In this document: positions 9,488 to 28,181 of the stretch, in pieces
Numbering within the stretch: the stretch's first letter is position 1
Layout: each line of letters opens with the position of its first letter
NCBI GenBank assembly: GCA_963745835.1
Contig: CAVUZH010000016.1
Location: 96,001-160,000 of the forward strand
DNA: 64,000 bases
From: an uncultured delta proteobacterium
GTDB lineage: Bacteria; Desulfobacterota; Binatia; UBA9968
Reading direction: 5' to 3'
Made by a program: the position numbers and the translations under genes
The notes under the pieces: generated by a model
The model's input: only the letters and a program-made list of their open reading frames with translations
What the model was told of the DNA's origin: nothing
Databases searched by the model: none

Positions 9488-9642
9488 AGCAGGTTGATGA
9501 AAAACCCGAATTGCAGGCTGCTCAAAAAGATCTCAGAGCCGAGGCGCGCGACAAATCGACGAGCGGAGGCGTACTAAGCGAGTACGTTGACGTGAGGCGA
9601 TTGAGCGCAACGAAGGATTGAGTCTTTTTCAGCAGGCTGCTA
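9488..9642. repeat. MITE/REP-like palindromic element, copy A
   Basis: Ends AGCAGGTTGATGAAAAA ... TTTTTCAGCAGGCTGCTA, central GCGTAC-N-GTACGTTGA; related inverted copy at 20032-20182; supplies the ligase stop codon. Confidence 0.65.
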
Positions 9643-11760
9643 CAGCACCCCCGCTCCCCGCGCCCATTTGTACTTGGCGCCCAGCACCGCGACGGGCAAT
9701 TCCGTCGTATATGGATAAGCGACAATGCCGCGCTCGTAGAGATACTCGCTCGCTTCTTCGACCTGCACGTCGCCGACCAGCGACGCGACCACCGGTTTGT
9801 CGATGCCTTTATCGCGCGCTTCTTGGACGACTTCGGCGCACAGTTTAGCGAATACCATGGGCGGCGTGATGATCGTGTGCCAGTATCCGAGGATCAGCGA
9901 ATCGATGCGCGGTTCGCCCAGCGCATAGCGAATGGTATTTGCATAGGTTGTCGGCGGCTCGCCGCCGGTAATGTCAATGGGATTGCCGGCGGCGCCGAAA
10001 GGCGGAATAAATTTTCGAAACGCAGCGTCGAGATCCGGCGGCATTTTCATCAAGGACAAGCCGTTGTCGACGCATGCGTCCGACAACAATACGCCCGATC
10101 CGCCGGCGCCGGTAATGATCACGACGTTCTCTCCTTTGGGATTCGGCAGCACCTGCAGGCCGCGAGCGAATTGCAGCATGTCATTTAAACTTTTCGCCCG
10201 GACGACGCCGCATTGTCGCAGCACGTCATCATAGATCTTATCGTTTCCCGCCAGCGCCCCCGTATGCGACGCCGCGGCGCGCGCGCCCAGCGCCGTACGC
10301 CCGGCTTTGAGCACGACCACCGGCTTCTTTTTCGACACCCGGCTCGCTATCTCGGCGAACGAACGGCCGTCCTTTAGATCCTCGCAGTGCATCGCGATGA
10401 CTTGGGTGTTATCGTCCTGTTCGAAATAAGTCAGGAGATCGTCTTCATCGAGATCCGACTTGTTGCCAAGACCGACGATGGCCGATACTCCCATCTTCGT
10501 GGAGCGCGAAAATCCGATAATCGACATGCCGACCCCGCCCGACTGCGAGCTGAGCGCGACTTTACCCTTTACGTCGTAGGGCGTGCAAAAAGTCGCGCAG
10601 AGATTTTGCGGCGTATAGTAAAAGCCGTAGATATTCGGGCCCATGACCCGCACGTTGTGCTTGCGCGCCACTCCAAGCAGCTCGTCCTGCAGCGCCTGCT
10701 CACCGATCTCGGCAAAACCCGAGGGGATCATGACGGCGCCGGGAATTTTCTTTTGCCCGACTTCCTGCATCGCCGCGGCGCAAAATTTAGCCGGGATCGC
10801 GAACACCGCCACATCGATTTCCCCGTCCACTTTGAGCACGCTTGGGTACGCCTTGCGCCCGAGGATTTCGCCGGCCTTGGGATGAATCGGCAAGATCGCT
10901 CCTTGATAGCCGCCGTTGATAAGATTTTTCATCACGGAATTGCCGATCTTGCCGTCTTCCGCCGAGGCGCCGATCACGGCGACAGAACGGGGATTCATGA
11001 TGCGCTGCATAGCTGCGAGAATTTCGCTCTGACTGTAGCGCTGCCGCGATTGTGGCGGCTCTCCTAGGACGATCCGCACGTCCACGGCACTGGCTCCCGT
11101 ATCCGTGGCAAAGATCGGGTTCAAATCAACCTCGTGAATTTCTGGAAAATCAGTCACCAGCTTTGACACTTTCGAGATGATGTCGGCCAGCGCCGCGCGA
11201 TCGACGCCTTTACCGCCGCGCACGCCGCGCAGAACCTCAGCGGCTGCGATAGAATCAAGCATTGCCAGCGCCTCGGTTTCGCTCACTGGGGCCATGCGAA
11301 AGGTAATGTCTTTCATCACTTCGACCAGAACTCCGCCAAGACCAAAGGCGATCATTTTACCGAAGGTGGCATCGGTCACGGCGCCAACCATGACTTCCTG
11401 GCCGCCTTTGAGCATTTGCTGGACCTGCACGCCCTGTATGCTGACGTTGCTGTTGTACTGCTTGGCATTGTTGACGAGCTGTTCGAACCCCGCCCGAACA
11501 TCTGCTGCGTTCTCCAGTCCAACGATAACGCCACCCGCTTCGGTTTTGTGAAGGATATCGCCCGAAACTATTTTCAAAACGACGGGGAAGCCCAACGCCG
11601 CGGCTACTTCCGCTGCCTTTGACGCTGTTGTTGCCAGCGCTTGCTTCGGCGTAGAGATTCCGTACGCTTCGCAGAATTGCTGCGCCTCGGGCGCGGTCAG
11701 AGCGCGCCGCCCGGCAGCCAGAGCAGAGTTGATAACGGTGCGTAAGCCTTCATCGTTCAT
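9640..11760 (-). CDS. Acyl-CoA synthetase (ADP-forming), acetate-CoA ligase family, ATP-grasp domain first
   Basis: N-terminal VVLKIVSGDILHKTEAGGV and DLNPI; C-terminal CoA-binding part with SQSGG, SHTGALAG, NPIDITG. Confidence 0.88.
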   Translation of the reverse strand: MNDEGLRTVINSALAAGRRALTAPEAQQFCEAYGISTPKQALATTASKAAEVAAALGFPVVLKIVSGDILHKTEAGGVIVGLENAADVRAGFEQLVNNAKQYNSNVSIQGVQVQQMLKGGQEVMVGAVTDATFGKMIAFGLGGVLVEVMKDITFRMAPVSETEALAMLDSIAAAEVLRGVRGGKGVDRAALADIISKVSKLVTDFPEIHEVDLNPIFATDTGASAVDVRIVLGEPPQSRQRYSQSEILAAMQRIMNPRSVAVIGASAEDGKIGNSVMKNLINGGYQGAILPIHPKAGEILGRKAYPSVLKVDGEIDVAVFAIPAKFCAAAMQEVGQKKIPGAVMIPSGFAEIGEQALQDELLGVARKHNVRVMGPNIYGFYYTPQNLCATFCTPYDVKGKVALSSQSGGVGMSIIGFSRSTKMGVSAIVGLGNKSDLDEDDLLTYFEQDDNTQVIAMHCEDLKDGRSFAEIASRVSKKKPVVVLKAGRTALGARAAASHTGALAGNDKIYDDVLRQCGVVRAKSLNDMLQFARGLQVLPNPKGENVVIITGAGGSGVLLSDACVDNGLSLMKMPPDLDAAFRKFIPPFGAAGNPIDITGGEPPTTYANTIRYALGEPRIDSLILGYWHTIITPPMVFAKLCAEVVQEARDKGIDKPVVASLVGDVQVEEASEYLYERGIVAYPYTTELPVAVLGAKYKWARGAGVL

Positions 11761-12052
11761 CGGAACCTCCGAGACTTCGTTATGCGATTGTTAAATTAAG
11801 CTCAGGCAGCAAAAACTGAGCGTCCTTGGCTAACGGCTGTGTTATTCGTTTTGATTGACTCCGGAGAATTGTGAACGGAAAAAAATTTCTCGCTGATGTT
11901 ACCCTGAGGCCCACCGAAGGGCTCGAAAAGACATCGCAGAATTTAAGTGAACCACGTGGCATGTCCAAGGATGGTGAGGGTTTTAGCTCGAAGTTCACTT
12001 GGCCGATCCCCGATGCACTTATACCAAGCAGCGTTGTCGCCATCGCGCGAGA

Positions 12053-13294
12053 TTAGATCGCGCCTTCGTTTTGGGCCTCTTCGATCTCATCGTCATCCAG
12101 ACCCAAGACGGATTCCAATATCTCGCCGGTGTGCTCGCCCAACAGCGGCGAACGCTTAACTTCCGTCGGTGAATCCGAGAGCTTGATCGGGTTCCCAACG
12201 GTGAGAAATTTGCCGCGCTTGGGGTGATTCACTTCGACAACCGTGCCGGTTTCGCGCAAAGACCGCTCCGCGGCAATTTCGCGCATGTCGAGGATCGGCC
12301 CGCATGGGATGTCGAATTCGTTGAGCGTGCGCATCACTTCCAGTTTATCGAGACTCATTGTCCACTGCTCGATGATCTCAAAACATTTATCGAGCTTCGG
12401 TAGGCGCTTCTCCGGTGTCGCCCATTCGGGATCGGTGATCAATTCGGGCCGGCCGCAGAGCTTCATCAGCGGTTCCCAGCCTACCGGCTGGATGATGACG
12501 TAGATGTAGTCGTTCGCCCCGCCGCCTTTGGTGCGCACCGCCGATCCCGGCTGCCCGCCGCCGGACGCGTTGCCGGCGCGCGGCACGGCGGCGCCGAAAA
12601 CTCCGTTCGGGTATTGCGGATATTCGGTCAGCGGTCCGGCCGCAAGTCTCTGCTGGTCGCGCAGCTTGACCCGGCAGAGATTTAATACGGCGTCCTGCAT
12701 CGCGCAGGTAACGCGTTGTCCTCTGCCGGTCTTCTCACGCTGGAAGAGTGCCGCGAGAATGCCCGCCGCCAGGTGGACGCCGGTGCCCGAGTCGCCGATC
12801 TGCGCGCCGGTGACGAGCGGCGGGCCATCGTCGAAGCCGGTGGTACTGGCCGCGCCACCGGTACACTGAGCGACGTTTTCATAAACTTTGCAGTCTTCAA
12901 ACGGACCGGGGCCAAAGCCCTTGACCGATGCGTAAATGATCCGAGGATTGAGCCCCTGAATGGCTTCCCAAGTAAAGCCTTGACGGTCCAGCGCGCCGGG
13001 CGCGAAGTTTTCCACCAAAACGTCGCAACGGCGAATTAGCTCGCGGAAAATCTCTTTGCCTTTTTTAGTCTTGGTGTTGAGCGTGATGCTCCGTTTGTTG
13101 CAGTTGAGCATCGTGAAATAAAGGCTGTCGACATTCGGCTTGTCGCGCAATTGGCCGCGCGTAATGTCGCCGCGGCCAGGCAGTTCCACCTTAATCACGT
13201 CGGCGCCGAACCAGGCCAAGAGTTGCGTGCAAGTAGGTCCGGATTGCACATGGGTCATGTCGAGAATACGAACTCCATCGAGCGCTTTTCCCAT
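12053..13294 (-). CDS. frc: Formyl-CoA:oxalate CoA-transferase
   Basis: [52 protein letters not shown] (catalytic Asp), [10 protein letters not shown] loop. Confidence 0.92.
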
Positions 13295-13327
13295 CGATGT
13301 GTTTACTCCTTAAGAAAATTCAATCTC

Positions 13328-13520
13328 ACCACGAAGATCACGAAGGACACGAAGATTTCAGATAATCAGCTTCAATTTCGAAAATCCGAATATCGAAATT
13401 CGAAACAATTTCAAAAATCCGAGAAAATTCAAAACTCAATCGGGCGCGAGACTGCTGAAACATTCGATCTTTTGTCATTTCCAAATTGTTTCGACTTTCG
13501 CATTTCGTGCTTCGAATTTA
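13328..13520. repeat. Periodic-repeat hairpin element (9-nt CACGAAG units plus 7-nt CGAAA units in inverted arms)
   Basis: accacgaagatcacgaaggacacgaag; cgaatatcgaaattcgaaacaattt is inverted against aaattgtttcgactttcgcatttcg. Confidence 0.7.
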
Positions 13521-13559
13521 TTGTTAAGCCTTTGGCCTTGCGCGAGCATCTCCGATTTT

Positions 13560-15278
13560 CTATTTGTACATTGTTTGCGCTTTGGTGCCGGGCGCATACT
13601 CATTGATATCGACCCAGATGTTGACGATCGCGCATTGACCGCCAGCAACACGCTCGCGCGCCTTCTCCAGCGCGGGGCGAATCTGACCCGGCTCACGCAC
13701 CGCAATGCCCCAGCCGCCGAAGCACTCAGCAAATTTTTCGAAATCCACGTCGCCGAGCTTATTACCGACACAGCCGCGCTCGGGACCGTATTTACCGATT
13801 TGGCCGCAGCGGATCTGGTTCATGGCCGAGTTGTTGCCGATCACGGCAAGATAAGGCAGGCCGAAACGCTGCGCCGTTTCCATGTCCCACGACGTCATGC
13901 CGAAGGAACCATCGCCGTAGTAGCAGAGCACTTCTTTCTTGGGATGGACGAATTTCGTCGCCATGGCGAAGGAGGTGCCGACTCCCAGCGTACCGAGCGG
14001 CCCGGGATCCATCCAATTGCCGGCTTTGCGCGGTTCCACCGCGGTCGCGGTGATCGTAACCACATCGCCGCCGTCGCCGATGTAAACGGTGTTGTCCGTT
14101 AGAAACTCGTTGATCTCATAGGCAACCCGGTACGGATTGATCGGCGTCGATTCGGATTTAAACGACGGCAAGAGTTTTTCGTAGGCTTTGCCTTCCGCAG
14201 CGCGCAATTCTTTCATCCACTCAGCGCGTTGTGCATTGCCCTTCGCTGCACGGCCCGACGCCGCTTGCTCGACCGCTTTGAGAATCGCGCCGCAATCACC
14301 GACGAGCCCCAGGGATATATCGCGATTCTTACCGACGTTGCGGTAATCCAAATCGATTTGCACGACCGTCGCATCGGCACGCAACCGCCGGCCGTAACCG
14401 AGACGAAAATCGAATGGGCTGCCGACGATAAGGATCACGTCGGCCTTGTCGAACGCAAGCCGCCGTGTTCGGTTAAAGCCATGCGGATCGCCGGGGGCGA
14501 AAACGCCGCGCGCCGACCCGTTCATATAGCCAGGAATATTGAGCGCGCGGCAAAACTCCACCGCCGCATCATGCCCTCGGCAGGTCCAAACTTGCGTGCC
14601 GAATAGCGCCGCCGGACGCTCGGCCTTGACTAAAATATCGGCGAGCCGCTCGATATCCGCGGGATCGCCCACCGATTTAGTCGAGGCGCGATAGGCGCCG
14701 GGTTTGGGAACCCGCGCTCGCTCCAGCGGCACCTTGGCATCAAGCACGTCGCGGGGGATTTCCAAATAGCTCGGTCCCGGGGCGCCGTTGACCGATTCGC
14801 GGAACGCCATTGAAACCATGTCGGCAATCCGTTCCGTGTGCGGCACACTCGCAGCAAACTTGGTTATCGGCGACATGAAGTCCACGTGTGGCAAATCCTG
14901 CAGCGATCCCATCTTGTGCTGACTCAGCGCCCCTTGCCCGCCGATCATGAGAAGCGGGCTTTCGGCGCGAAAGGCATTGGCGATGCCGGTCATGGCGTTG
15001 GTGGTGCCGGGCCCCGCGGTCGTCACCACGCAGCCGATTTTGCCGCTCTGGCGCGAGTAACCGTCGGCGGCGTGCGCGGCAACCTGCTCATGGCGCACGT
15101 CGATGATTTTGATGCCTTCGTCGATGCAGCCGTCGTAGATATCGATGATATGACCGCCGCAGAGCGTCCAGATAACCTCGACGCCTTCATTCTTGAGCGC
15201 TTTGGCAACCAAATGCCCGCCGGAGATAACCGGACCGGTCGTTTCCTTTTTCGCATCGACATTAACTGATTGAGCCAT
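13560..15278 (-). CDS. TPP-dependent oxalyl-CoA decarboxylase / 2-hydroxyacyl-CoA lyase family enzyme
   Basis: TLCGGHI, DVRHEQ, TAGPGTTN, GDGSFG...GNN TPP motif; directly upstream of frc. Confidence 0.8.
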   Translation of the reverse strand: MAQSVNVDAKKETTGPVISGGHLVAKALKNEGVEVIWTLCGGHIIDIYDGCIDEGIKIIDVRHEQVAAHAADGYSRQSGKIGCVVTTAGPGTTNAMTGIANAFRAESPLLMIGGQGALSQHKMGSLQDLPHVDFMSPITKFAASVPHTERIADMVSMAFRESVNGAPGPSYLEIPRDVLDAKVPLERARVPKPGAYRASTKSVGDPADIERLADILVKAERPAALFGTQVWTCRGHDAAVEFCRALNIPGYMNGSARGVFAPGDPHGFNRTRRLAFDKADVILIVGSPFDFRLGYGRRLRADATVVQIDLDYRNVGKNRDISLGLVGDCGAILKAVEQAASGRAAKGNAQRAEWMKELRAAEGKAYEKLLPSFKSESTPINPYRVAYEINEFLTDNTVYIGDGGDVVTITATAVEPRKAGNWMDPGPLGTLGVGTSFAMATKFVHPKKEVLCYYGDGSFGMTSWDMETAQRFGLPYLAVIGNNSAMNQIRCGQIGKYGPERGCVGNKLGDVDFEKFAECFGGWGIAVREPGQIRPALEKARERVAGGQCAIVNIWVDINEYAPGTKAQTMYK

Positions 15279-15612: not shown

Positions 15613-15650
15613 AAATCCCCGCCGACCCTTAATCTCGGAGCGGCGGGATA
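15613..15650. terminator. Hairpin downstream of the oxidoreductase operon
   Basis: atccccgccg...cggcgggat stem 25-60 nt past the beta-subunit stop. Confidence 0.45.
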
Positions 15651-15674
15651 GTTTTGACGCAGGCGAAAAACAAT

Positions 15675-16673
15675 TTAAATTCGCGCTTTTAGAATTCCTC
15701 GTAACGGCGCGACTCCCGGCATCTCCCATTCATCCCACATCGTGTCCACCATCTTCTGGATGTGGGTGAAGTGCTCTTCTTGGAGATGATCGAAGCGGCC
15801 CTGTTTGGTGAGAAATTCTTTCACCGGAATTCGTCCCTTGCCGGTTTTGCGCGCGTCCCAGGTGTAAATGATGTTGCCGTCGACGATTTCGTAGAGCGGA
15901 TAGATGCCGCATTTGATTCCCAACTCGCCGAGCTCGTTTGAGAAGCGAGGGTGATAGTCCCAGCCCTTTGGACATGGATCGTAGGTGTGGATGAAGGTCG
16001 GGCCACCGATGGCGAGCGCCTTTTGCACCTTGTTGAGATAGTCCGTGGGCGGAAAGGTGGCACAGGCGGTAGCGACGTAGCGGCAGGTCGGATGGCCGAC
16101 GGCGAGCATGCCGGCGACGTTCTTTTTCCAGCGCCGCTGCATGATCGGGTGCTTCGTTCCCGGAGGCGTGAACGTCGTCTGCGCGCCGAAAGTTGTCAGC
16201 CCTGTCGCCTGGATGTCGGTATTGGCGGCCGATTCGTTGTCGTACATGATAATCAGCAAGTCATAATCGCTCTGCAGCGCGGCGGAAATCCCTCCAATTC
16301 CCATATCGCCGGCGCCGAGATCGCCGGAGAAGTTGATGACATTGATCTTCTCGTCTTTGATCTTCCCCTTGCGCTTGAGCGCGCGCAGGCCCGCGGCCAT
16401 ACCCACGGCCGAAGAGCCACCGGCGCCGAGCTGGGTGTGCATCCAGGGCACGATCCAGGGCGTGGTCAAGTAAGAGGTGTTGGCCACATACATGCAGCCG
16501 GTCGCTCCCGTGACCACTGTGCGCGAACCCGCGACCTTGATAAAGCCGCGCATCGTCGTCGCCGACTCGCATCCCTGACAGGTGCGATGGCCAGAGGTGT
16601 AAAGCTCTTCCAGCGGAATTTTGTGAACGCCTTTGATCTTCTCGTAATCGATTTGTGGTGCAGTTGACGACAT
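15675..16673 (-). CDS. oorB: Oxalate-oxidoreductase-like 2-oxoacid:ferredoxin oxidoreductase, beta (TPP-binding) subunit
   Basis: GHRTCQGC, TGCMYVANTSY, YDNES, TTFTPPG, PCPKGW, as recalled for Moorella OOR beta. Confidence 0.72.
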   Translation of the reverse strand: MSSTAPQIDYEKIKGVHKIPLEELYTSGHRTCQGCESATTMRGFIKVAGSRTVVTGATGCMYVANTSYLTTPWIVPWMHTQLGAGGSSAVGMAAGLRALKRKGKIKDEKINVINFSGDLGAGDMGIGGISAALQSDYDLLIIMYDNESAANTDIQATGLTTFGAQTTFTPPGTKHPIMQRRWKKNVAGMLAVGHPTCRYVATACATFPPTDYLNKVQKALAIGGPTFIHTYDPCPKGWDYHPRFSNELGELGIKCGIYPLYEIVDGNIIYTWDARKTGKGRIPVKEFLTKQGRFDHLQEEHFTHIQKMVDTMWDEWEMPGVAPLRGILKARI

Positions 16674-16690: not shown

Positions 16691-17932
16691 TTACTCCCTT
16701 AGACCGATCCAGGTTACGAATTCGTCCATCGAATCCTTCTTGGCCGCCTGTTGCGTTATATCGTACATCTTCTGCGCGTCCGCGATCGAGAGATCGCGCC
16801 CGCCCAGGCCGCCCATGAAATTGACGATCGCAGGCCGATTTTTGGCCGGGTAGAGACAAGAGCGGACCTCGTGCATCAGGATGCCGCAATTGTCGGGCGA
16901 GCCGTGGGCGAAATCCCTATCGACCACGCCGACCGCTTTAAAGCGGCTCAAGCACTCGCGTAGCTCAACTGTCGGGAAAGGCCGGAACCAACGCAGGTTC
17001 ACGTAACCCACTTTTTGTCCCTTCTCGCGCAGCCGGCGCGCCGCCGTGCGCGCCGGAGCCGCCACCGTGCCGACGCCGATCAGGACCGCCTCCGCGTCGT
17101 CGGTCATGAATTCATCGAAGTAGTAGGGCGCGGAGTAGCGCTCGCCGAAAACTTCGTTGAATTCTTGATACGCATCCTTGATGACGCCGCGCGCCCGTTT
17201 GGCGGCCTCCCAGTTCTGGCGTCTCAGCTCCATAACCCAGTCCTCGTTGACCTGTGGGGCGACCGAGATCGGGTTGTCGGGATGAAGCCGGCGCTCGGCC
17301 AGATCGTACTGCGGGAGAAATCTCTTCGCCGCCTCCGGCGACGGAATCTTCACCATGTGCTGGGAGTGGGTGAGGAAGGCGCCGTCCATCGCCAGCCCCA
17401 TCGGCATCCTGACTTTTTTGTCCTCCGCGATGCGGTAGCCGATCAGCACGTGCTCGAGCGCTTCTTGCGGGGTTGTCACCCAGCAAAGAAGCCAGCCCAT
17501 GTCACGGACCGCCATCGCATCGTTGTGCTCGACGCCGAAGGCGCCCGGATCATCCAGAGCGCGGTTGCCCACCACGAAAAGCGGTGGGAGACGGTCGGTC
17601 GCGGTAACGACTAGCGCTTCCATACCGTACATCCAACCCGTGCCGCTCGATCCGCCGAAGGCGCGGGCGTTCACCGAGCTGGCGTGCTTGACGATCTCGA
17701 ACTGGGAGTGCTCGCTGTCCGCGATGATGTACTCCGCGTCGAACTTTCCGTCGGCGATCAGCTTCGAAAGCGCGTCCATCACCTCGGTATAGGGACGGAT
17801 CGGATAAGCGGCAATCACGTCCACGTCCGCCAGGCAGACCCCCTGCGCGACGGCCTGGCAGCCGTTTAAAAGGTCTTCCCGCTCGTAGACGCCTGATTGA
17901 TCTGATTTGGCTTTTGCGACTGCAACGCTCAT
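16691..17932 (-). CDS. oorA: Oxalate-oxidoreductase-like 2-oxoacid:ferredoxin oxidoreductase, alpha subunit
   Basis: GCQAVAQGVCLADVDVIAAYPIRPYT (YPIRP rather than PFOR YPITP), SEHSQ, RALDDPG, RPFP. Confidence 0.75.
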   Translation of the reverse strand: MSVAVAKAKSDQSGVYEREDLLNGCQAVAQGVCLADVDVIAAYPIRPYTEVMDALSKLIADGKFDAEYIIADSEHSQFEIVKHASSVNARAFGGSSGTGWMYGMEALVVTATDRLPPLFVVGNRALDDPGAFGVEHNDAMAVRDMGWLLCWVTTPQEALEHVLIGYRIAEDKKVRMPMGLAMDGAFLTHSQHMVKIPSPEAAKRFLPQYDLAERRLHPDNPISVAPQVNEDWVMELRRQNWEAAKRARGVIKDAYQEFNEVFGERYSAPYYFDEFMTDDAEAVLIGVGTVAAPARTAARRLREKGQKVGYVNLRWFRPFPTVELRECLSRFKAVGVVDRDFAHGSPDNCGILMHEVRSCLYPAKNRPAIVNFMGGLGGRDLSIADAQKMYDITQQAAKKDSMDEFVTWIGLRE

Positions 17933-19128: not shown

Positions 19129-19865
19129 GAAATCCGCCTCTCTTTTATAAGATTTTGACTCTCTTTTTTTGCCGGGCGCTTGGACAACAGCACGCTTTCC
19201 TCGACCTGTTCGATATGGCGCAGCATTTCACTGCGCGCTCTTGTCTTGTCGTGTTTCTCTATCGCGACAATGATCCTTCGGTGCGCGTCAATAGACGATT
19301 CGCGCCGCTCGTCGGTCTGCAACGATTCCTCACGGCTGCGGCTCAGCATCTCCATCAAGCCCGACACGAGCTTTTGCAGGGCTTGATTGCGCGTGGCGCG
19401 GCTAATGCAAAAGTGCAGCTCGGCGTCCGCCTCCACGCCGGTTTCGCCGCGACTTACCGCCTCGCCTTGTTTGGCAACGATTCTTTTCAGTTGCGCGATG
19501 TCATTCCCGGTCGCCCGCTGGGCGGCGAGAGCGGCGATATGGGGTTCGATCAACTTGCGCATTTCAAACATGTCCGCGAGAGCTTTTTTCTCATCGATCA
19601 GCAGCCGCGCGAGCGGCCCAATTAAAGATTCAACCGGCAGGTCGGCAACGAAATTGCCCGTGCCGGTTCGGCTGACGATCAGTCCCTGGGTTTCTAACGC
19701 GCGAAGCGCCTCGCGTACCGAAGTTCGGCTGACTTTGAAAGTTTCAGCCAACTCGCGCTCCGAAGGGAGCTGATCACGGGCCCTGAGTCTGCCCTCCTTG
19801 ATCAATTGATGGATCTGGTTGAAGACGTCCTCGTGAATTCTGATTTTTTTGATAGCTCGAAGCAT
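19125..19865 (-). CDS. GntR/FadR family transcriptional regulator
   Basis: LPSERELAETFKVSRTSVREAL HTH plus FCD domain; ATGA overlap with the next gene. Confidence 0.92.
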   Translation of the reverse strand: MLRAIKKIRIHEDVFNQIHQLIKEGRLRARDQLPSERELAETFKVSRTSVREALRALETQGLIVSRTGTGNFVADLPVESLIGPLARLLIDEKKALADMFEMRKLIEPHIAALAAQRATGNDIAQLKRIVAKQGEAVSRGETGVEADAELHFCISRATRNQALQKLVSGLMEMLSRSREESLQTDERRESSIDAHRRIIVAIEKHDKTRARSEMLRHIEQVEESVLLSKRPAKKESQNLIKERRIS

Positions 19866-19882: not shown

Positions 19883-19921
19883 CTGGTCTGACCAGTTATC
19901 GAATTTTGGGCCGCTTGTCAA
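19883..19921 (-). promoter_or_regulatory. FadR-type operator CTGGTC-T-GACCAG with upstream TTGACA -35
   Basis: Perfect palindrome 19883-19895 matches the TGGTnnnACCA FadR-subfamily consensus; TTGACA on the minus strand at 19921-19916. Confidence 0.75.
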
Positions 19922-20027: not shown

Positions 20028-20031
20028 TATC

Positions 20032-20249: not shown

Positions 20250-21974
20250 ATGACTGAAGCTGATCTCATTCGCCTGCGCTCGGTACTCACCGAGTTGGCG
20301 CCGCAAGGGCGCGCTGCGCTCCTGCCGGCGTTGCACCTTGCACAGCAATTCCACGGCTGGTTGCCCGAAGCCGTTGCTGCGGAAGTCGGCCGCGCCTTGG
20401 GCGTGCCGCTCGCCGACGTGTATGGCGTTATCGATTTCTACCAGATGTTCTCCCGGCAGCCGATGGGCCGAACCGTCGCACGTGTCTGCAGCGCGCCTGT
20501 CTGCGCCCTCGCAGGAGCCGATGAGGTGACGAACGCCCTGTGCCGCCATCTGAACGTCGTCCCGGGCGAAATCAGCTCGGATGGTGAGTTCACCGTCGAG
20601 CACGCTCCCTGCCTCGGCTTATGCGATCACGCGCCGGCTGTGCTTATTGACGAAGCTGCCGTTGGACGTGCTGATCCCCAGCGCGCGCCCACGATCCACA
20701 CGCGCGGCGGCCAGAGACCGATCAGCTTCATCGGCGGCGATATTCGGATCCTCACCGGCAATTGCGGTCAAGGTCATCCCACTTCATTTACCGATTACAG
20801 CAGCGGCGGCGGTTATGCGGGATTGAAAAAAGCTTTGACGATGACGCCACAAGACGTGATTGCGGAGGTGAAGGCCGCGGGCTTGGTGGGCCGCGGCGGC
20901 GCGGCATTTCCAACCGGCATCAAATGGGAAGGAGCGGCCAAGGCGGCCGGCGAACCCAAGTACATCGTGTGCAATGCCGACGAATCCGAGCCTGGGACGT
21001 TCAAAGACCGCATTCTCATGGAGGAGGACCCGCACCGTACCCTTGAAGGCATGATCATCGCGGCCCATGCCGTGGGTGCGCGTCACGGCTACATCTACAT
21101 TCGCGGAGAATATCCCTACGCATTTAAAGTTGTCGGCGATGCGCTGGGCGAGGCGCGGCAGGCCGGCGTTATCGGCAAAAACATTTTCGGCTCCGGGTTG
21201 GACTTCGATATCGAAATGCGGCTGGGCGCCGGCGCCTATATTTGTGGGGAAGAAACCGCGCTGCTGGAATCCATCGAGGGTAAGCGCGGTTTTCCGCGCA
21301 TCAAGCCGCCGTTTCCGACCACCCACGGGTTGTTTGGCAAACCGACTGTGATCAACAATGTGGAGACTTTTTGCAACGTCCCACTGATTTTCCAAGGCGG
21401 CGCCGCCGAGTACCGCAAGACAGGCACACAACGCTCGCCCGGTCCCAAACTGTTTTGCGTGTCGGGGCAGATACAAAGACCCGGGCTGTACGAAGTGCCG
21501 TTTGGCGTTACCTTGCGCCATTTGCTGTTTGAGCTGGCGGGCGGGCTGGAGCAGGGGCGCAAACTTCAAGCCGTGCTCATGGGCGGCGCTGCGGGCGCGT
21601 TCGCCACTGAGAAAGACTTGGATGTGATCTTATCGTTTGAGAATCTGAGCGCCGCCGGCTTGCCGCTCGGCTCCGGCGCGGTAATGGTCTTCGACGACAG
21701 CGCCGACATGCGCGACGTGCTGAAGCGCCTGGGGCACTTTTTTGCCGACGAAAGCTGCGGCAAATGCTATCCCTGCCAGCTCGGCACGCAGCGACAGCAT
21801 GAAATTCTCGACCGCGCCGCTGCCGGAGCTGCCGTTGCCGGCGACCGGGAACGGTTATCGGATGTCGGCGGCACGATGATCGATGCGTCCCTGTGCGGCC
21901 TGGGCCAGACGGCGGCGACGGCGGTGTTGAGCGCCATGAAGCTATGGCCGGAGATGTTTGATGGCAAGAAGTAG
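20250..21974 (+). CDS. Fused NuoE+NuoF-like diaphorase subunit of NAD-dependent formate dehydrogenase
   Basis: N-terminal 2Fe-2S thioredoxin-like CSAPVC...CLGLC; GRGGAAFPTG, NADESEPGTFKDR, GAGAYICGEET, ESCGKCYPC, SLCGLG. Confidence 0.9.
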   Translation: MTEADLIRLRSVLTELAPQGRAALLPALHLAQQFHGWLPEAVAAEVGRALGVPLADVYGVIDFYQMFSRQPMGRTVARVCSAPVCALAGADEVTNALCRHLNVVPGEISSDGEFTVEHAPCLGLCDHAPAVLIDEAAVGRADPQRAPTIHTRGGQRPISFIGGDIRILTGNCGQGHPTSFTDYSSGGGYAGLKKALTMTPQDVIAEVKAAGLVGRGGAAFPTGIKWEGAAKAAGEPKYIVCNADESEPGTFKDRILMEEDPHRTLEGMIIAAHAVGARHGYIYIRGEYPYAFKVVGDALGEARQAGVIGKNIFGSGLDFDIEMRLGAGAYICGEETALLESIEGKRGFPRIKPPFPTTHGLFGKPTVINNVETFCNVPLIFQGGAAEYRKTGTQRSPGPKLFCVSGQIQRPGLYEVPFGVTLRHLLFELAGGLEQGRKLQAVLMGGAAGAFATEKDLDVILSFENLSAAGLPLGSGAVMVFDDSADMRDVLKRLGHFFADESCGKCYPCQLGTQRQHEILDRAAAGAAVAGDRERLSDVGGTMIDASLCGLGQTAATAVLSAMKLWPEMFDGKK

Positions 21975-22043: not shown

Positions 22044-22053
22044 GAGGCAATTT

Positions 22054-22756
22054 ATGGCTGATGTAACTCTTATTATCGACGGCAAGTCCGTCACTGTTCC
22101 TGACGGCACGACGATCCTCAAGGCGGCGGAAAAAGCCGGGCGGCAAATTCCCACTATATGCTACCACGATCATTGCACGGCCAACGGGCTTTGCCGCATC
22201 TGCGTGGTCGAAGTCGACGGCGTAAAGCCGCTTGTCCCTGCCTGTCTGAGCCGGGCGAGCGAAGGCATGAAGGTCACTACCTCGAGCACGCGCGCCGAGC
22301 GCAGCCGCCGGACAATCCTGGAGATGCTCGCGTCGGCCGTGGATCTTTCTGAGGCGCCGGAGATCCAAAAGTTTATCGACTGCTTATCGCGCCGACACCG
22401 CGCGCTTTCCCGATGCCGAGCGGCGCGAGTATCCGGTGCTCGATGACAACCCGATGTATCTCCGCGACTACTCCAAATGCATCCTGTGCTGGCGCTGCGT
22501 TCAGGTGTGTGCCGACGATGCGCAGTTTACCTACGCGATCAACTTCAAAGGGCGCGGTTTTGACACCGGCATCGGCACCTTCTTTGACAAGCCGATGCCT
22601 GAAACAACCTGCGTATTTTGCGGCCAGTGCGTCGGCGTCTGCCCCACCGGCGCGCTCAAGCCCAAGCGCGAGTCGCTGCTCGAGCAGGGCCTTTCGTTGG
22701 ATGAAATCATGCAGGCGACCAGGGGCGGAAAGAAACGCCGGAGGAAGTCACCATGA
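22054..22756 (+). CDS. NuoG/FdsA N-terminal-like Fe-S subunit (2Fe-2S plus 2x4Fe-4S); one +1 frameshift near 22381
   Basis: IPTICY...[10 protein letters not shown]...PAC, then after removing one base [22 protein letters not shown]...[23 protein letters not shown]. Confidence 0.82.
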
Positions 22757-24918
22757 TTACACCGGATCGGATCGTCCCGACCACCTGCCCCTACTGCGGC
22801 GTGGGATGCAATCTGGAGCTGCACATCAAAGACGATTTCGTTTACAAAGTGACCTCGCCGTTTGACGCGGTCGTGAATCACGGCAACCTGTGCGTCAAAG
22901 GACGCTTCGGTTACGATTTTGTTTACAACAAGGACCGGATGACCACGCCGCTCATTCGCAAGACTGCGCAGGAGCCCGGGAGCGCGCACCCAGGCCTTCG
23001 ACCGCGACCAGTGGCGCGAGGTATCGTGGGACGAGGCCCTCGATTATACCACTGAGCGGCTGGTCGAGATTTACCAGCGGGATGGCGCCGATGCGATGGC
23101 GGTCTACTGCTGCGCCAAGGCAACCAACGAAGACAACTATCTCCTGCAAAAGCTGTTTCGCGCGCTGTTCCGCAGCAATAACGTCGATCACTGCACCCGA
23201 TTGTGCCATGCGGGCTCGGTGGTGGCGCTGCAAATGGCGCTCGGCTCCTCCGGCGATGAGCAACACCGCCGCCGAAGTCATTCACAGCGACGTTTTTCTC
23301 GTTACCGGCTCCAACACCGCCGAGACCCATCCGATCATTGCGCTGCAAATGAAAGCGGCGGTGGCCAACCACGGCGCCAAGCTCATCGTCGTCGATCCGC
23401 GACGAGTTGAGATGGTCAACTGGGCCGCGCTCTGGCTGCCGGAGAAGCCCGGCACCGACGTACCGCTCTTTTCCGCGATGGCGCATGTCATCATCAAGGA
23501 AGGACTTTATAACCGCGATTTCATCGAACGGCGCACCGAAGGCTTCGCAGAGTTCGTTAGGTCAATGGAAAAATTCACCCCCGAGTACGCCGAATCGATT
23601 TCCGGCGTGGACCGCAATCTCATCGTCGAAGCCGCCCGGATGTATGCGACGGCAAAGAACGCGGCGATCTATTGGGCGCTGGGCATTCCCGAGCATTCGC
23701 ACGGAACCGACAACGCGATGTCGCTGATTCATCTCGCGCTGCTCACCGGCCATATCGGCCGCCAAGGGCACCGGCCTCAATCCCTTGCGCGGGCAGAACA
23801 ACGTGCAGGGTGCATCGGATTCCGGCGCCATGCCATGGCACTATCCCGGTTATCAGAGAGTCGACGACGAGGCGGCCGCAAGTAAATTTGAGCACGCTTG
23901 GAACAGCGAGCCCGGTAGCTTAAACCGCAAGCTGGGACTGACGACCACAGAAATCATGAGCGCGGTGGGACCAGGCGGCGTGCGCGCTCTTCACATCATG
24001 GGCGAGAATCCGATGATGTCCGAGCCCAACCTGAACCACACGCGCCACAAGATGGAACAATTGGAGTTCCTGGTGGCGCAGGACTTGTTCATCAATGAGT
24101 CCGGCGCGTATGCCGACGTCTTTTTGCCGGCGGCTTCATGGGCGGAGAAGGAAGGGACTTTTACCAACACGGACCGGCGCGTCCAGCGCGTGCGCAAGGC
24201 GCTGGAGCCGCGCGGCCAATCCCGATCCGATTGGCAGATCATCTGTGATCTTGCTGAGCGCATTGAAAAGAAGCTCGGCCGCCCGCAGACAGCCTTTTGG
24301 GCATACAAGAGTCCCGCCGAAGTGCTCGAAGAGATGGGACGTGTGGTTCCTGAATACGCCGGAGTGAAATATCGGCGCATCGAAAATCAGGGCTTACAGA
24401 CGCCGGTGTGGGATGACGATCATCCCGGCACTCCCTATCTATTCGCCGAGACTTTCCCAAGCGGCAAGGGTAAGTTCCACCCGCTTGAGTACGTGCCGTC
24501 TGTGGAAATGCCGGATGACGAATACCCGTTCATCCTCACCACCGGACGCCTGCTCGAGCACTGGCACGGCGGCACGCTCACGCGCCATTCGAAGCTCGAC
24601 GAGCTTTATCCGGAGGCGCGCATTGAGATCAATCCTGCGGATGCTGCCCGCCTCAGGATCGAAGATGGACAGACGGTGCGGGTCTCGTCGCGGCGCGGTT
24701 CCATCGTTCTGCGCGCTTGGGTGACACAGCGGGCGACTGTGGGTGTGGTCTTCATCCCTATGCATTTCGCCGAGGCTGCCGCCAATCTGCTCACCATCGA
24801 CACCCTGGATCCCGTAGCTAAGATTCCCGAATACAAAGCCTGCGCGGTGCGCGTCGTACCCGCTACGGAAGACCAATTAGTCAGGCCCGAGGGGAAAGTT
24901 CAAAGAGGTAGATACTAA
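22753..24918 (+). CDS. fdhF: Formate dehydrogenase alpha (Mo/W-bisPGD) subunit, Cys-type; three +1 frameshifts near 22981, 23252 and 23766
   Basis: [58 protein letters not shown] spread over successive frames. Confidence 0.85.
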
Positions 24919-25015
24919 CGTCACGAACGGGACGAGCATCAACCTCGGTGACCCCGGTGAAAGTTACCGCGACGAAGTCTGATTAAGCCGATTTACCAAA
25001 TCGATAAAGACCGCT

Positions 25016-25085
25016 TACCGCAGAGTCGCGCAGGACACGGAGACGGATTCGTAAAGTGTTCGGCGCTCTGTGCCTCTATGGTGAA
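25016..25085. repeat. Degenerate 9-nt periodic hairpin (accgcagag... / ...ctctgtgcctctatggtga)
   Basis: Imperfect inverted arms between the convergent fdhF and tctA genes. Confidence 0.45.
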
Positions 25086-25192
25086 ATCCCGCTTCTCGCT
25101 TATGGTTAGGGCTTTGCCGCTTCGACAGTTCGTAGCGAAGCCGGATTCTTCCTTTGTGACACCCCTGTCACCCTGAGTCTCTGCACGAATAC

Positions 25193-26713
25193 TTATAGAT
25201 GAGCTGATTCAGGCTTGCGATCAGGTATGCCCCGCATCTTACGCCACCAGGGTGTCAACAACGGCAAAATGAAAAAGAAAATCGCCGCCGCGGTGATCAC
25301 TCCTGAAATAGGCCGGGTGAAAAAGATCGCGAGCGATCCTTGAGACATAATTAGACTTTGCCGCAGGGCATTTTCGGCCATGTCGCCCAGGACGAGCGCC
25401 AGCACCAACGGCGCCAATGGATAGTCGAGTTTTTTAAAGACATAGCCGATGACACCGAAGATCAACATGTACCAGATGTCGATCATGCTGTTGTGCACGG
25501 CGTAAGAGCCGATGGCGCAGATAACGACGATCAGCGGCGTGAGGATCGCAAAAGGAATTCTCAGGATACCGGCAAAGAACGGCACGAAGGCCAGGACAAT
25601 CAGTACGCCGATGACATTCCCCGTATACATGCTGGCAATCAGACCCCAGACGAAATCGGGATTGTCGATGAAGAGCATCGGGCCCGGCTGGAGACCCCAG
25701 ATGATCAGCCCACCTAGCATCACCGCTGCCGTCGGCGAACCTGGGATGCCAAGGGTGATCATCGGCAACATGGCCGCGACGCCTGCCGCATGGGCGGCGG
25801 TCTCAGGCGCCACAATGCCCTCGATCTCGCCCTTGCCGAATCGTTCCGGGTTCTTTGAGAAACGCTTGGCGAAAGCGTAGCTCATGAACGACGCCGGCGT
25901 AGCGCCGCCGGGCTTGAAACCCATCCAGAAGCCGATAATGGAGCTACGTACGAATGTCCGGTAAAAGCGCGGTAAGACTTTCCAGGTATCGAGCACGACG
26001 CGCAGGTTCATGACCGTCTTTGCCCCTTGGAAGCGCAGTCCCTCTTCGACGCTGAGCAAAATTTCGCCGATGCCGAATAACCCAATAACTGCGATGATGA
26101 AGTCAAAGCCCTTCATCAGATCAGTGAAGCCGTAGGTGAGCCTGAGCTGGCCCGTCACGATATCCAACCCAACCGTCGAGAGCATGAAGCCGATGAGAAT
26201 CGTGGCTAACGACTTGAGCGGATTTCCCCCGCCCAGCCCGACGAAACTTGAAAACGTCAGGAGTTGGATCGCGAAAAACTCGGGCGGCCCGAACTTCAGC
26301 GCAACCTCGGCCAAGAGCGGCGCGAAAAACGTGATCAGCACGATTGAGAAGAAAGCACCGACAAACGAAGAGCTAAAGGCAGCCGTAAGCGCCTCCCCAC
26401 TCCTGCCCTCCTTGGCCAGCGGATAGCCGTCGAATGTCGTCGCCACCGACCACGGCTCGCCCGGAATATTGAAGAGCACTGACGTGATCGCGCCGCCGAA
26501 TAAAGCGCCCCAGTAAATACACGTCAGCAGGATGATGGCCGAAGTCGGCGGCATAGTGAAAGTAAGCGGCAGGAGAATCGCGACGCCGTTAGCGCCTCCG
26601 AGGCCGGGCAGTACGCCGATGATGGTGCCAAGCAAGATGCCCACCACCGCCATAAAAAGATTAAAAGGCGTTATCGCAATCTGGAAGCCAAGGAAAAGAT
26701 TCTCAAGTCCCAC
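25193..26713 (-). CDS. tctA: Tripartite tricarboxylate transporter large permease
   Basis: GVLPGLGG, NIPGEP, APETA, LGIPGS, GLQPGP. Confidence 0.92.
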   Translation of the reverse strand: MGLENLFLGFQIAITPFNLFMAVVGILLGTIIGVLPGLGGANGVAILLPLTFTMPPTSAIILLTCIYWGALFGGAITSVLFNIPGEPWSVATTFDGYPLAKEGRSGEALTAAFSSSFVGAFFSIVLITFFAPLLAEVALKFGPPEFFAIQLLTFSSFVGLGGGNPLKSLATILIGFMLSTVGLDIVTGQLRLTYGFTDLMKGFDFIIAVIGLFGIGEILLSVEEGLRFQGAKTVMNLRVVLDTWKVLPRFYRTFVRSSIIGFWMGFKPGGATPASFMSYAFAKRFSKNPERFGKGEIEGIVAPETAAHAAGVAAMLPMITLGIPGSPTAAVMLGGLIIWGLQPGPMLFIDNPDFVWGLIASMYTGNVIGVLIVLAFVPFFAGILRIPFAILTPLIVVICAIGSYAVHNSMIDIWYMLIFGVIGYVFKKLDYPLAPLVLALVLGDMAENALRQSLIMSQGSLAIFFTRPISGVITAAAIFFFILPLLTPWWRKMRGIPDRKPESAHL

Positions 26714-26716
26714 GAC

Positions 26717-27196
26717 TCAGTACCCGAACCAGGCCTCGACCGGCCCCTTGGGCATCGGCACCAGGAACCAGGTCTCGAAAATGAGGAATGTGATAACCGG
26801 GACGGATGTGGCGAGCGCCACGACGGTCCGCCAGTCGTGGCGCCCAACCCAGCGCATGTAAAAACCGAGATAAAGACCCGCCGCAACATAGAGTCCAAGC
26901 CCGGACCACGGACCCGGCGGATCGGTGAGGATGACGAAGCCGGCCAGAGGACCCAGTACCTGGAGAACCGGCACAAACCGGTCTCGCGTGACGAAAGGTT
27001 CTCCGGATCGCTTTCGTAAAGCTTGCAAGAATAATACTATGCTGACCAGCGCCAGGAGGACGGCAAGCCAGAACGGGAAGAAACCGCTCTGAGGCCCTTC
27101 GGCCCCCCAACCGAAGCCGAGGCGCAGAGCGTCATAGATCACTATGGCGCTCAAGAGCATCAGCAGCGCGGCGGTCATGCTATCGAGAACGCGCAT
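26717..27196 (-). CDS. tctB: Tripartite tricarboxylate transporter small permease
   Basis: Four TM segments, GPQSGFFPFW, LVPMPKG. Confidence 0.88.
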   Translation of the reverse strand: MRVLDSMTAALLMLLSAIVIYDALRLGFGWGAEGPQSGFFPFWLAVLLALVSIVLFLQALRKRSGEPFVTRDRFVPVLQVLGPLAGFVILTDPPGPWSGLGLYVAAGLYLGFYMRWVGRHDWRTVVALATSVPVITFLIFETWFLVPMPKGPVEAWFGY

Positions 27197-27197
27197 G

Positions 27198-28181
27198 CTA
27201 CTTCTTGACCAAACCGCCTTTCTCCATCAGTTCCTTGTGGAGCTTGTCGTTCTCCTCTACCCATTTCACATACTCGCTACCGGTGGCGAAGGCTGGTTTC
27301 AGCGCGCCGGTGCGAAGATAATCCTGGAACTCTTTTGTCTCCGACAGCTTTTTCAAAAAGCCTTGATACCACTCCAACGCGTCTTTAGGCATGTCAGGCG
27401 CCCCAAAGATGCCTCGCAGCATGTTGTAAGAGATGTCCGCACCCAAAGCCTCTTTGATGGTCGGAATTCCACTCCACTCCTTGTCCGGGATACGCTCCGG
27501 GTCGAAAACTGCCAGCGGCCGCACGCGCTTTGCCTTCCAATTGCTCACGCATTCGGCCGGATTATTGACGGTTGAGTCAACGTGGTTGCCGACCAGGTTG
27601 GTACACACCTCACCTCCGCCTTTGAATGGCACATAAGTGAACTTCACTCCCTGGCTCTGCTCCAGCAATACGGTGATGATCTGATCCTCCTGTCTGGATC
27701 CGGTGCCGCCCATCTTCATACCCGGCTTCTGCTTCACGGCCGCTAAGTATTCTTTGGCGCTCTTATAAGGTGTTTCTTCATTGACCCACAGGATGAAACG
27801 ATCAAGGGCCATCCTGGCAACGGGGGTGAAATCGCGCCAGCTGAATGGGGTCCCGGTAGCCAGCGGTGTCGTGAACAGGTTAGACAGGGTTATGATGATC
27901 GTGTGCGCGTCGCCCTTCTTCTCCTTGACATGCAGGAAGCCCTCGGCGCCGGCGCCACCAGCCTTGTTGACGACGATAAAAGGCCGGGGTGAGAGCTTGT
28001 GCTTGTCAGCGAGGCCGGCCATCAAACGCGCCATTTGATCGGCGCCGCCGCCAGTGCCGGCCGGTATCACGAACTCAATGGGCTTGGTCGGCTCCCAAGC
28101 GATTGCTATGGATGGTCCAAGAAGGAGCTGAATGATAAAAGCCGCGGAGATCACAGTACTCAAGCCGCTGATAATTTTCAT
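27198..28181 (-). CDS. tctC: Tripartite tricarboxylate transporter substrate-binding protein
   Basis: Signal peptide, PTKPIEFVIPAGTGGGAD, VNKAGGAG, YVPFKGGGE. Confidence 0.9.
   Translation of the reverse strand: MKIISGLSTVISAAFIIQLLLGPSIAIAWEPTKPIEFVIPAGTGGGADQMARLMAGLADKHKLSPRPFIVVNKAGGAGAEGFLHVKEKKGDAHTIIITLSNLFTTPLATGTPFSWRDFTPVARMALDRFILWVNEETPYKSAKEYLAAVKQKPGMKMGGTGSRQEDQIITVLLEQSQGVKFTYVPFKGGGEVCTNLVGNHVDSTVNNPAECVSNWKAKRVRPLAVFDPERIPDKEWSGIPTIKEALGADISYNMLRGIFGAPDMPKDALEWYQGFLKKLSETKEFQDYLRTGALKPAFATGSEYVKWVEENDKLHKELMEKGGLVKK

Follow-up and report, generated by a model that had tools for sequence, protein, structure and literature searches.

This report concerns a window of 64,000 nucleotides, the whole stretch analysed, which corresponds to positions 96001-160000 of contig C16 in the 7.28-Mb, 25-contig assembly of genome G000, and a gene island that lies within it. 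Open reading frames (ORFs) were called across the window and scanned against Pfam and NCBIfam. The resulting gene list is consistent with an island of a Binatia-type soil bacterium that joins an oxalate oxidoreductase (OOR)-type enzyme, a coenzyme A (CoA) route centred on formyl-CoA transferase (frc), an NAD-type formate dehydrogenase (FDH), and a tripartite tricarboxylate transporter (TTT). All genes that a previous sequence-only reading of this DNA had named were recovered in place by ORF calls, Pfam, and NCBIfam. The features of the island, in window coordinates, are as follows:

9640..11760, minus strand: ADP-forming acyl-CoA ligase (Pfam ATP-grasp_5, CoA_binding, Succ_CoA_lig, Ligase_CoA_2)
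12053..13294, minus strand: formyl-CoA transferase, frc (TIGR03253)
13560..15278, minus strand: thiamine diphosphate (ThDP) enzyme of an unnamed family in the neighbourhood of 2-hydroxyacyl-CoA lyase (HACL), oxalyl-CoA decarboxylase (Oxc) and BAL (NCBIfam, PDB, context)
15675..16673, minus strand: OOR-like beta (oorB), the ThDP and proximal-cluster subunit (NCBIfam, PDB)
16691..17932, minus strand: OOR-like alpha, oorA (NCBIfam, PDB, motifs)
17929..19128, minus strand: OOR-like delta (oorD), domain III plus a 2x[4Fe-4S] ferredoxin domain (NCBIfam, PDB)
19125..19865, minus strand: FCD-type GntR regulator, first gene of the operon (Pfam GntR and FCD)
19884..19894, no strand: candidate operator, the perfect 11-nt palindrome TGGTCTGACCA, 19 nt upstream of the GntR start
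20250..21974, plus strand: NuoE-NuoF fusion, the NAD(H)/FMN diaphorase module of the FDH (Pfam 2Fe-2S_thioredx, Complex1_51K, NADH_4Fe-4S)
~22054..22756, plus strand: HoxU/NuoG-N-like Fe-S subunit with one +1 frameshift (frames, alignment with genome G023)
22753..24918, plus strand: FdhA (Cys type) with three +1 frameshifts (frames, alignment with G023, NCBIfam)
25193..26713, minus strand: tctA (Pfam TctA, 510 bits)
26717..27196, minus strand: tctB (Pfam TctB, 62 bits)
27198..28181, minus strand: tctC (Pfam TctC, 89 bits)

The stop of the GntR gene overlaps the start of oorD, with ATGA overlaps at both the GntR/oorD and oorD/oorA junctions, and spacers of 396, 265, and 292 bp separate the ThDP, frc, and ligase genes, respectively, from the gene before. 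The nuoEF-FeS-fdhA genes diverge from the GntR operon, and tctABC converges on fdhA. An ORF in the frc-ligase gap (orf87, 11780-12043) was rejected as a gene, as it has no Pfam family and no tblastn match listed in relatives. An Rfam scan of positions 9000-29000 (E values up to 0.1) returned a single chance snoRNA-like match, and promoter and terminator scans gave counts not above those in shuffled sequence. Separately, the 265-bp ThDP-frc gap contains a 30-nt A/T-rich inverted repeat (13387-13507; 80% complementary, 61 nt apart).

Moorella oxalate oxidoreductase (PDB 5c4i, 5exd, 5exe; NCBIfam NF045790-92) is the top NCBIfam family for the alpha, beta, and delta subunits alike, and it is also the closest solved enzyme. 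The alpha subunit scores 335 bits against 5c4i_A, compared with 203 for the next best match, a pyruvate:ferredoxin oxidoreductase (PFOR), while beta scores 263 bits against 5c4i_C and 171 against PFOR beta. The best PDB match of delta is 5c4i_B at 63 bits; this subunit carries two CxxCxxCxxxCP motifs and a C-terminal extension of ~60 residues. Other 2-oxoacid:ferredoxin oxidoreductases (OFORs) read YPITP where OOR has YPIRP. In an alignment to 5c4i_A, the window alpha subunit retains YPIRP as well as the equivalent of Arg109, the two arginines of these sites (Arg31 of YPIRP, and Arg109) being described as binding oxalate in the Moorella enzyme in an excerpt of PMC5020499.

These features extend well beyond the window. 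Of 84 alpha family members drawn from the retrieved loci, 82 have YPIRP and the other 2 FPIRP, and both the Arg109 equivalent and the loop GNRALDDPGAFG occur in all 84, including a group just 57-58% identical. The family has many members (at E up to 1e-40, more than 7,700 of the 8,000 candidate proteins scored), and copies of the alpha gene that are 92-99% identical occur in public records titled mostly as Candidatus Binatia or 'Deltaproteobacteria' metagenome-assembled genomes. By these comparisons, the OOR-like enzyme is best described as a distinct, strongly conserved sister clade of the Moorella OOR.

The second module is built around frc. The window Frc scores 683.5 bits against TIGR03253 (cut-off 504.2), is 60% identical to E. 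coli Frc over its full length, and is the genome's only match to this model over the cut-off. To survey the adjacent ThDP gene, metagenome contigs were scanned with a 75%-identical family member and the best 80 of 571 relatives were kept. Within this set frc lies directly downstream of the ThDP gene in 51 of the 57 loci with room. Moreover, among 41 related genomes, the ThDP gene and an over-cut-off frc are present in an identical 18, and the two are adjacent in 17 of these, the exception being a contig break. No canonical Oxc was found in the window's genome, where the best match reaches 308 bits against a cut-off of 739. We regard the ThDP enzyme, on its gene neighbourhood, as the probable functional partner of Frc. 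The source names seen for its family are 'acetolactate synthase' or 'thiamine pyrophosphate-binding protein' only. In three loci (L150, L151, and L165), the ThDP gene is followed by an Fmt-like gene, without frc.

Linkage of the two modules was followed in the best 80 of 209 relatives of the alpha gene, a set in which many loci end at contig ends and in which relatives are not independent. The genes oorD, oorA, and oorB stand together wherever the contig allows. We split the loci into those with an alpha subunit at least 85% identical to that of the window (36 loci) and those of other phyla (44 loci). The ThDP gene directly follows oorB in 7 of 23 loci with room in the former group and in 0 of 34 in the latter. 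For loci with ~5 kb on both sides, the corresponding counts are 3/9 and 2/21 for frc, 4/9 and 2/21 for TTT genes, and 1/9 and 0/21 for nuoEF. Viewed from the other module, FDH genes are found in 4 and OOR-like genes in 1 (L123) of the 80 ThDP loci.

A similar picture emerges from the 41 related genomes. An OOR-type orthologue (at least 88% identity) is present in 17 of them, two being fragments and one, G018, coming from an unpublished genome. Four genomes carry both modules (G000, G003, G004, and G023), 13 the OOR type only, and 14 the ThDP-frc pair only. The two modules are separable, yet joined when both are present: they are adjacent in three of the four both-module genomes, and in G003 the contigs end there. 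The sequence-only reading had tied its joint locus to linkage of the sub-clusters in relatives, and here the outcome is divided, as the modules are mostly unlinked across genomes (4 against 13 and 14) but adjacent in three of the four that hold both. Clustering in the island nevertheless exceeds chance, as other genomes carry these modules together in several different layouts.

The transporter genes bear most directly on the substrate. TctA, TctB, and TctC domains occur together in one operon (25193-28181), and TTT orthologues adjoin OOR-like genes in 17/80 loci, including those of Armatimonadota and other phyla, and lie upstream of the ThDP gene in 15/37 ThDP-frc loci. We searched 13 foreign, locus-linked TctC proteins (5 OOR-linked and 8 ThDP-linked) against the genome. 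Each query finds 6-9 TctC-family matches, and for all 13 the window TctC is the best (232-388 bits; next best, 125-164). The genome has no OxlT equivalog (best match to TIGR04259, 91 bits; cut-off 335), and the MFS gene beside the island (8086-9360) is EntS/MFS_3-like. The absence of OxlT fits the proposal that a TTT system stands in for it, orthologous TTT systems flank either module elsewhere, and TctCBA is a candidate oxalate importer.

In other lineages the same position is occupied by OxlT itself. OxlT-type genes are found in 7/80 OOR loci. The acidobacterial locus L082 has an OxlT equivalog (592 bits; cut-off 335) that diverges, together with a true frc (675 bits), from GntR-oorDAB, and a CoA ligase after oorB. 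An OxlT equivalog of 476 bits abuts oorB in L073 (Vicinamibacterales), and another, of 577 bits, follows the ThDP-frc pair in L177. A further acidobacterial locus, L056, combines GntR-oorDAB, a CoA ligase, a PanE-type reductase, an OxlT-type transporter, and a second ligase, and is a candidate for an oxalate cluster of the OOR-plus-assimilation kind. The oxalyl-CoA reductase of Methylorubrum belongs to the PanE-type reductase family, as is also mentioned in PMC13409138. Between the OxlT equivalog and frc, L082 (at 5379-6455) and the acidobacterial L089 also encode a 358-residue protein without a Pfam or NCBIfam family, the two copies being 85% identical.

Since the transporter slot is filled by a TTT or by OxlT according to lineage, and beside either module, both modules would be expected to handle imported oxalate. 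This exchange, which is a matter of gene context, is the strongest argument for oxalate. The claim of one locus joining an OOR-type enzyme and an frc-centred CoA route with FDH and TTT has thus stood up, with context outside this genome pointing to oxalate.

Regulation appears to belong with the OOR module. A same-strand GntR orthologue precedes oorD in 26/26 Binatia-type loci with room. The palindrome TGGTCTGACCA is the sole exact match in the window and is conserved in 5/5 aligned intergenic regions. In 22/26 Binatia-type and 9/19 other-phyla OOR loci, the 9-mer core occurs no more than 130 nt upstream of GntR, against a chance expectation of ~0.001 per 130-nt stretch. In ThDP-frc loci of other phyla, the core is as frequent as expected by chance (8 loci in 753 kb), and the GntR proteins there are 26-31% identical. 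We therefore consider the palindrome a candidate operator of the GntR regulator, and infer that regulator and operator are part of the OOR module. A possible second operator upstream of tctC (28321-28331, two mismatches) was rejected, such matches being at chance in the window (9 found, 10.7 expected), and there is no exact palindrome core in the G005 region that matches the tctC upstream. Elsewhere in the same intergenic region, a promoter-like block (~19997-20029) is conserved in all five aligned regions, and ~140 bp upstream of nuoEF (~20100-20245) are without counterpart in four aligned relatives.

Within the genus, the OOR genes behave as a cassette. Three same-genus genomes (G005, G006, and G007) share the order MFS, ligase-frc-ThDP-GntR, nuoEF-FeS-fdhA, tctABC, and metallo-beta-lactamase (MBL)-fold gene, and are 83-98% identical to the window gene by gene. 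In these the GntR gene directly precedes the ThDP gene, there is no oorDAB, and no OOR-type gene is found elsewhere in the genomes (completeness 96, 80, and 96, respectively). DNA similarity with the loci lacking oorDAB breaks off close to the GntR end and picks up again within the ThDP gene. The alignment places an oorDAB indel of ~3.8 kb (roughly 15279-19100) within one genus. As regulator and operator seem to belong to the OOR module, the ancestor of the genus probably had GntR-oorDAB-ThDP-frc-ligase, and G005-G007 would have lost the cassette.

All four Pfam domains of NDP-forming synthetases are over cut-off in the ligase, which has its beta (ATP-grasp) part fused N-terminal to the alpha part. 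Its PDB matches, 8wzu and 9y43, are both ADP-forming CoA ligases, and it is colinear with 9y43 in the same beta-alpha order; it falls far below all NCBIfam equivalog cut-offs (542 against 1300 and so on). A ligase gene follows frc in 14 of 32 testable ThDP loci. The extra gene of the ThDP-frc loci is either this ligase (16/80) or an Fmt-like formyltransferase (19/80), never both, and because the two are mutually exclusive, they likely share a role in formyl-CoA handling. The ligase fits better as a primer or salvage enzyme of the Frc cycle, one that would make starter formyl-CoA or oxalyl-CoA.

Taken together, we judge it reasonably probable that the locus is an oxalate-dissimilation island of modular build, with one FCD-GntR regulator at its head. 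In the proposed mechanism, TctCBA would import oxalate, and the OOR-like alpha/beta/delta enzyme would oxidise it to 2 CO2 independently of CoA, passing two low-potential electrons via three Fe-S clusters to a ferredoxin-type acceptor. In a parallel route, Frc would transfer CoA from formyl-CoA to oxalate and the ThDP enzyme would decarboxylate the resulting oxalyl-CoA to formyl-CoA, for a net yield of formate and CO2. NuoEF, the Fe-S subunit, and FdhA would then oxidise formate with NAD+, while the ligase would make or salvage the starter thioester (formyl-CoA or oxalyl-CoA) with no net ATP. Both routes would recover the same two electrons per oxalate, in the currencies of ferredoxin and NADH, respectively.

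A number of findings weigh against this reading, and those on the ThDP enzyme include the loss of its presumed name. The 'Oxc' of the sequence-only reading cannot be kept, since the protein is 25% identical to E. coli Oxc, fails both Oxc models (TIGR03254, 220.2 against a cut-off of 739.4; NF006721, 232.8 against 557), and belongs to a different, unnamed family. The GDYEEL of E. coli Oxc aligns with GSLQDL, so that by the alignment Leu-Gln replaces Tyr-Glu, an active-site pair of Oxc; the Gln (Q127) is of the HACL/synthase (HACL/S) type, where Oxc has Glu. The closest solved relatives are HACL/S enzymes (238-260 bits; 8vza, 260), compared with 177 bits for the Oxc structure of E. coli and 153 for that of O. 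formigenes. For ApbHACL/S, the portion of PMC11271303 that deals with these sites gives R156 and R276 as ADP-site arginines and R260 and R400 as acyl-CoA arginines. With a numbering offset deduced from all four lying at a constant shift, one of the four aligned arginines is kept in the window enzyme (R272, acyl-CoA), whereas the two of the ADP site and the other acyl-CoA arginine give way to A166, P288, and A411, respectively.

The HACL/S relatives, the Gln, and the failed Oxc models would suit a first alternative, which we consider unlikely, in which the ThDP enzyme is of the HACL/S type and splits or makes a small 2-hydroxyacyl-CoA (glycolyl-, lactyl-, or tartronyl-CoA), with formyl-CoA and a carbonyl compound as the other side of the reaction. 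Frc and the ligase would then shuttle CoA between formate and that acid, and the CoA module would not be an oxalate route. The Fmt-like formyltransferases of the ThDP loci, suggesting C1 traffic, would also suit such a role. The HACL model, however, fails as well (NF058623, 317.5 bits against 600), and the best NCBIfam family, PRK05858, is likewise below its cut-off (427 against 587). Further evidence against this alternative is that the partner Frc exceeds an oxalate-type equivalog cut-off, that OxlT equivalogs and PanE-type reductases occur in ThDP-frc loci, and that the module shares its TTT and, in this genus, its regulator with an enzyme that keeps both oxalate-binding arginines.

The OOR-like enzyme raises difficulties of its own. 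None of its subunits reaches the NCBIfam cut-off for OOR (alpha NF045791, 377.3 against 500; beta NF045792, 330.2 against 590; delta NF045790, 86.6 against 230). The plug loop of alpha reads LDDPGAFG where Moorella has LDPPGDFG, placing Ala at the equivalent of Asp116, with an Asp three residues earlier; in Moorella, Asp116 acts with Arg31 in the plug-loop mechanism, as the same excerpt of PMC5020499 has it. The oorD/A/B-like assignment of the sequence-only reading consequently survives in part, with OOR as the best family for each subunit, but as a sister clade that stays below all cut-offs and lacks the Asp116 equivalent. Cytochrome oxidase genes adjoin the OOR module in L044, from which the host lineage of this enzyme looks aerobic. 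Finally, most OOR-like loci are without frc, TTT, or FDH nearby, their other neighbours being unrelated housekeeping genes.

A second alternative follows the same lines, namely that the enzyme acts on glyoxylate, oxamate, or mesoxalate, or is an ordinary pyruvate/2-oxoacid:ferredoxin oxidoreductase, and sits beside frc as the passenger of a mobile three-gene cassette. Beyond the unmet cut-offs, the Ala, and the unrelated neighbours at most loci, it could draw on the presence or absence of the cassette inside one genus and on the names of 120 listed homologues, all 'pyruvate ferredoxin oxidoreductase'. We nonetheless think it quite improbable. YPIRP, which is YPITP in other OFORs according to the cited excerpt of PMC5020499, and the Arg109 equivalent are near-invariant; OOR outscores PFOR for alpha and beta alike; and OxlT, frc, PanE-type, and TTT genes recur alongside in at least three phyla and in different arrangements.

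Further points against the oxalate-dissimilation reading come from the FDH. The single FdhF of the sequence-only reading is actually a separate Fe-S subunit followed by FdhA, and both are frameshifted in this assembly by four single-base insertions, one in the Fe-S subunit near 22380 and three in FdhA near 22978, 23250, and 23766. These were located by stop-to-stop frames and by DNA alignment with the intact G023 orthologue. The Fe-S subunit frame is intact, at 235-258 codons, in G006, G005, and G023, and the FdhA frame is open over 736 codons in the same-genus G005 and G006. The intact FdhA orthologue of G023 scores 808 bits against TIGR01591 (cut-off 666), and the window pieces, split by three of the frameshifts, score 393 and 200. 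Short-read contigs from four runs in four soil or rhizosphere studies omit one letter at each of the four sites, among them pieces with just 3-5 other differences in 261-298 letters. Because four independent frameshifts lie beside intact alleles that are 98-99% identical, they are probably consensus errors rather than decay, a strain-specific pseudogene being the less likely reading. Two of the genome's 12 ThDP-enzyme matches also hold an in-frame stop (C19:155035-156675 and C25:2490-4190); these are either scattered assembly errors or further pseudogenes, and bear on the FDH frameshifts in either case. No other FDH at the level of TIGR01591 was found in the genome.

The diaphorase fusion scores 492 bits against TIGR01959 (cut-off 559). 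The idea that NuoEF and the OOR-like enzyme form a NAD-reducing oxalate dehydrogenase was dropped, as nuoEF lies near OOR-like genes in 2/80 loci and is retained in genomes without oorDAB. A hairpin from an 18-nt inverted repeat (94% complementary) occupies positions 21987-22043, between the nuoEF stop and the Fe-S start, in a 42-bp stretch absent from the orthologous locus of G023.

The last point against concerns assimilation: no gcl or PanE2-like gene was found in the genome, nor OxlT, which leaves growth with oxalate as carbon source unsupported. By its gene content, the island seems to serve dissimilation rather than assimilation. As for energy, the sequence-only reading had suggested ATP gain through the ligase, which on energetic and stoichiometric grounds is implausible for the conversion of oxalate to formate and CO2. 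Although NDP-forming acyl-CoA synthetases are reversible and make ATP in fermenters, and a ligase gene follows frc in 14 of 32 testable loci, substrate-level phosphorylation from formyl-CoA or oxalyl-CoA is very unlikely here, because a formyl-CoA spent on ATP has to be made good when the next oxalate is activated, at the cost of ATP or by CoA transfer, for a net of zero, the reaction releases just ~27 kJ/mol, and an Fmt-like formyltransferase, unable to make ATP, takes the place of the ligase in other loci.

Several observations concern the DNA flanking the island. Between an ABC binding-protein gene and the MFS gene, positions 6550-8000 hold gene debris, namely a 60-residue C-terminal fragment of an Ldh_2-family gene and a ydhR-like piece. 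On the other side, an MBL-fold gene (Lactamase_B_3; 28407-29225) diverges from tctC and may belong to the system; copies of 78-85% identity stand close to TTT or OOR genes in L033, L040, L066, and L185. A SagB-type dehydrogenase gene (29297-30859) adjoins the island and has a counterpart, 66% identical, close to oorDAB in L031.

Oxalate carries a major flow of carbon from plants and fungi into soil, and the chemistry of both oxalate routes is already known. What differs from known systems is a distinct OOR clade in cytochrome-oxidase-carrying lineages, a non-Oxc partner of Frc, a TTT, and an ADP-forming ligase, together with a single regulator in front of the two fused routes. The joined operon and its recurrence (7/23 loci) are new, as are the cassette indel inside one genus, the operator, and the test of TctC orthology. 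We tentatively hypothesize, with rather less confidence than we have in the island itself, a single effector-controlled regulon through which an oxygen-exposed soil bacterium takes the electrons of oxalate both as reduced ferredoxin and as NADH.

Our literature search returned nothing linking TTT transporters with oxalate and nothing relevant on Oxc with an ADP-forming ligase or on OOR in soil metagenomes, and for Binatia together with oxalate none of the matches listed concerned Binatia. An environmental review and a survey use oxc, frc, oxdC, and oxlT as markers, and no passage on a ferredoxin-dependent enzyme was found in the portions of them at hand. In the accessible part of the 2024 review, 'oxidoreductase' appears only for oxalate oxidase and 'tripartite' was not found; in that of the 2023 survey, neither 'oxidoreductase' nor 'Binat' was found. 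A gut survey states that OOR was left out.

If the regulon hypothesis is correct, four unassigned families would acquire a function. The ThDP family would constitute a class of oxalyl-CoA decarboxylases without an ADP site, probably overlooked by marker-gene surveys, the TTT would be the first oxalate importer of its type, and the ligase would be an ADP-forming formyl-/oxalyl-CoA synthetase. An OOR clade with a re-built plug loop would work outside strict anaerobes, and the oorDAB cassette would be a unit of gain and loss that tunes the regulon between strains of one genus. More generally, if the oxalate reading is right, uncultured, soil-abundant Binatia and members of Acidobacteriota and Chloroflexota would oxidise oxalate via mislabelled enzymes, the database labels 'pyruvate ferredoxin oxidoreductase' and 'acetolactate synthase' would hide oxalate enzymes, and surveys of marker genes would underestimate oxalotrophy. 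As a compact set that can be tested at the bench, the locus offers three enzymes, a binding protein, a regulator, and an operator.

Compared with the Moorella OOR, the window enzyme has the same three subunits and the same split of domains (alpha; beta; delta as domain III plus ferredoxin domain), and the Cys ligands for three [4Fe-4S] clusters are present. It differs in a delta subunit ~85 residues longer, in its pairing with an FCD-GntR regulator and candidate operator, and in its hosts, which are soil Binatia, Acidobacteriota, Chloroflexota, and others rather than an acetogen. The Frc/Oxc pathway of Oxalobacter formigenes and E. coli (yfdXWUVE, including frc, oxc, yfdV, and yfdE) is matched by a true Frc and an adjacent ThDP enzyme of the same superfamily, whereas the gene order is ThDP-frc and the transporter a TTT, not OxlT or YfdV. 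The HACL/S enzymes (8vza-8vzk, 6xn8, 7pt1) share with the window ThDP enzyme the active-site Gln and one acyl-CoA-binding arginine; the three other arginines set the window protein apart, as does its partnership with frc, a pairing not described for HACL genes.

The FDH resembles NAD-dependent soluble enzymes with NuoE/NuoF subunits (Fds type) in its NuoE and NuoF domains, its Fe-S subunit, and a Cys-type FdhA with a Mo/W-bisPGD cofactor. Conversely, NuoE and NuoF are fused in the window, and a gene of its own encodes the N-terminal Fe-S part of the large subunit. As in the E. coli yfd operon, where YfdE holds that place, there is an accessory CoA-activating enzyme, but the primer candidate of the window is an ADP-forming ligase and not an acetyl-CoA:oxalate CoA-transferase. 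This ligase has the full domain set of the NDP-forming acyl-CoA synthetases, represented by the Korarchaeum ACD (4xym) and by the 3-hydroxypropionate- and 4-hydroxybutyrate-CoA ligases of Nitrosopumilus (9y43 and 8wzu), and is distinguished from them by its setting beside frc.

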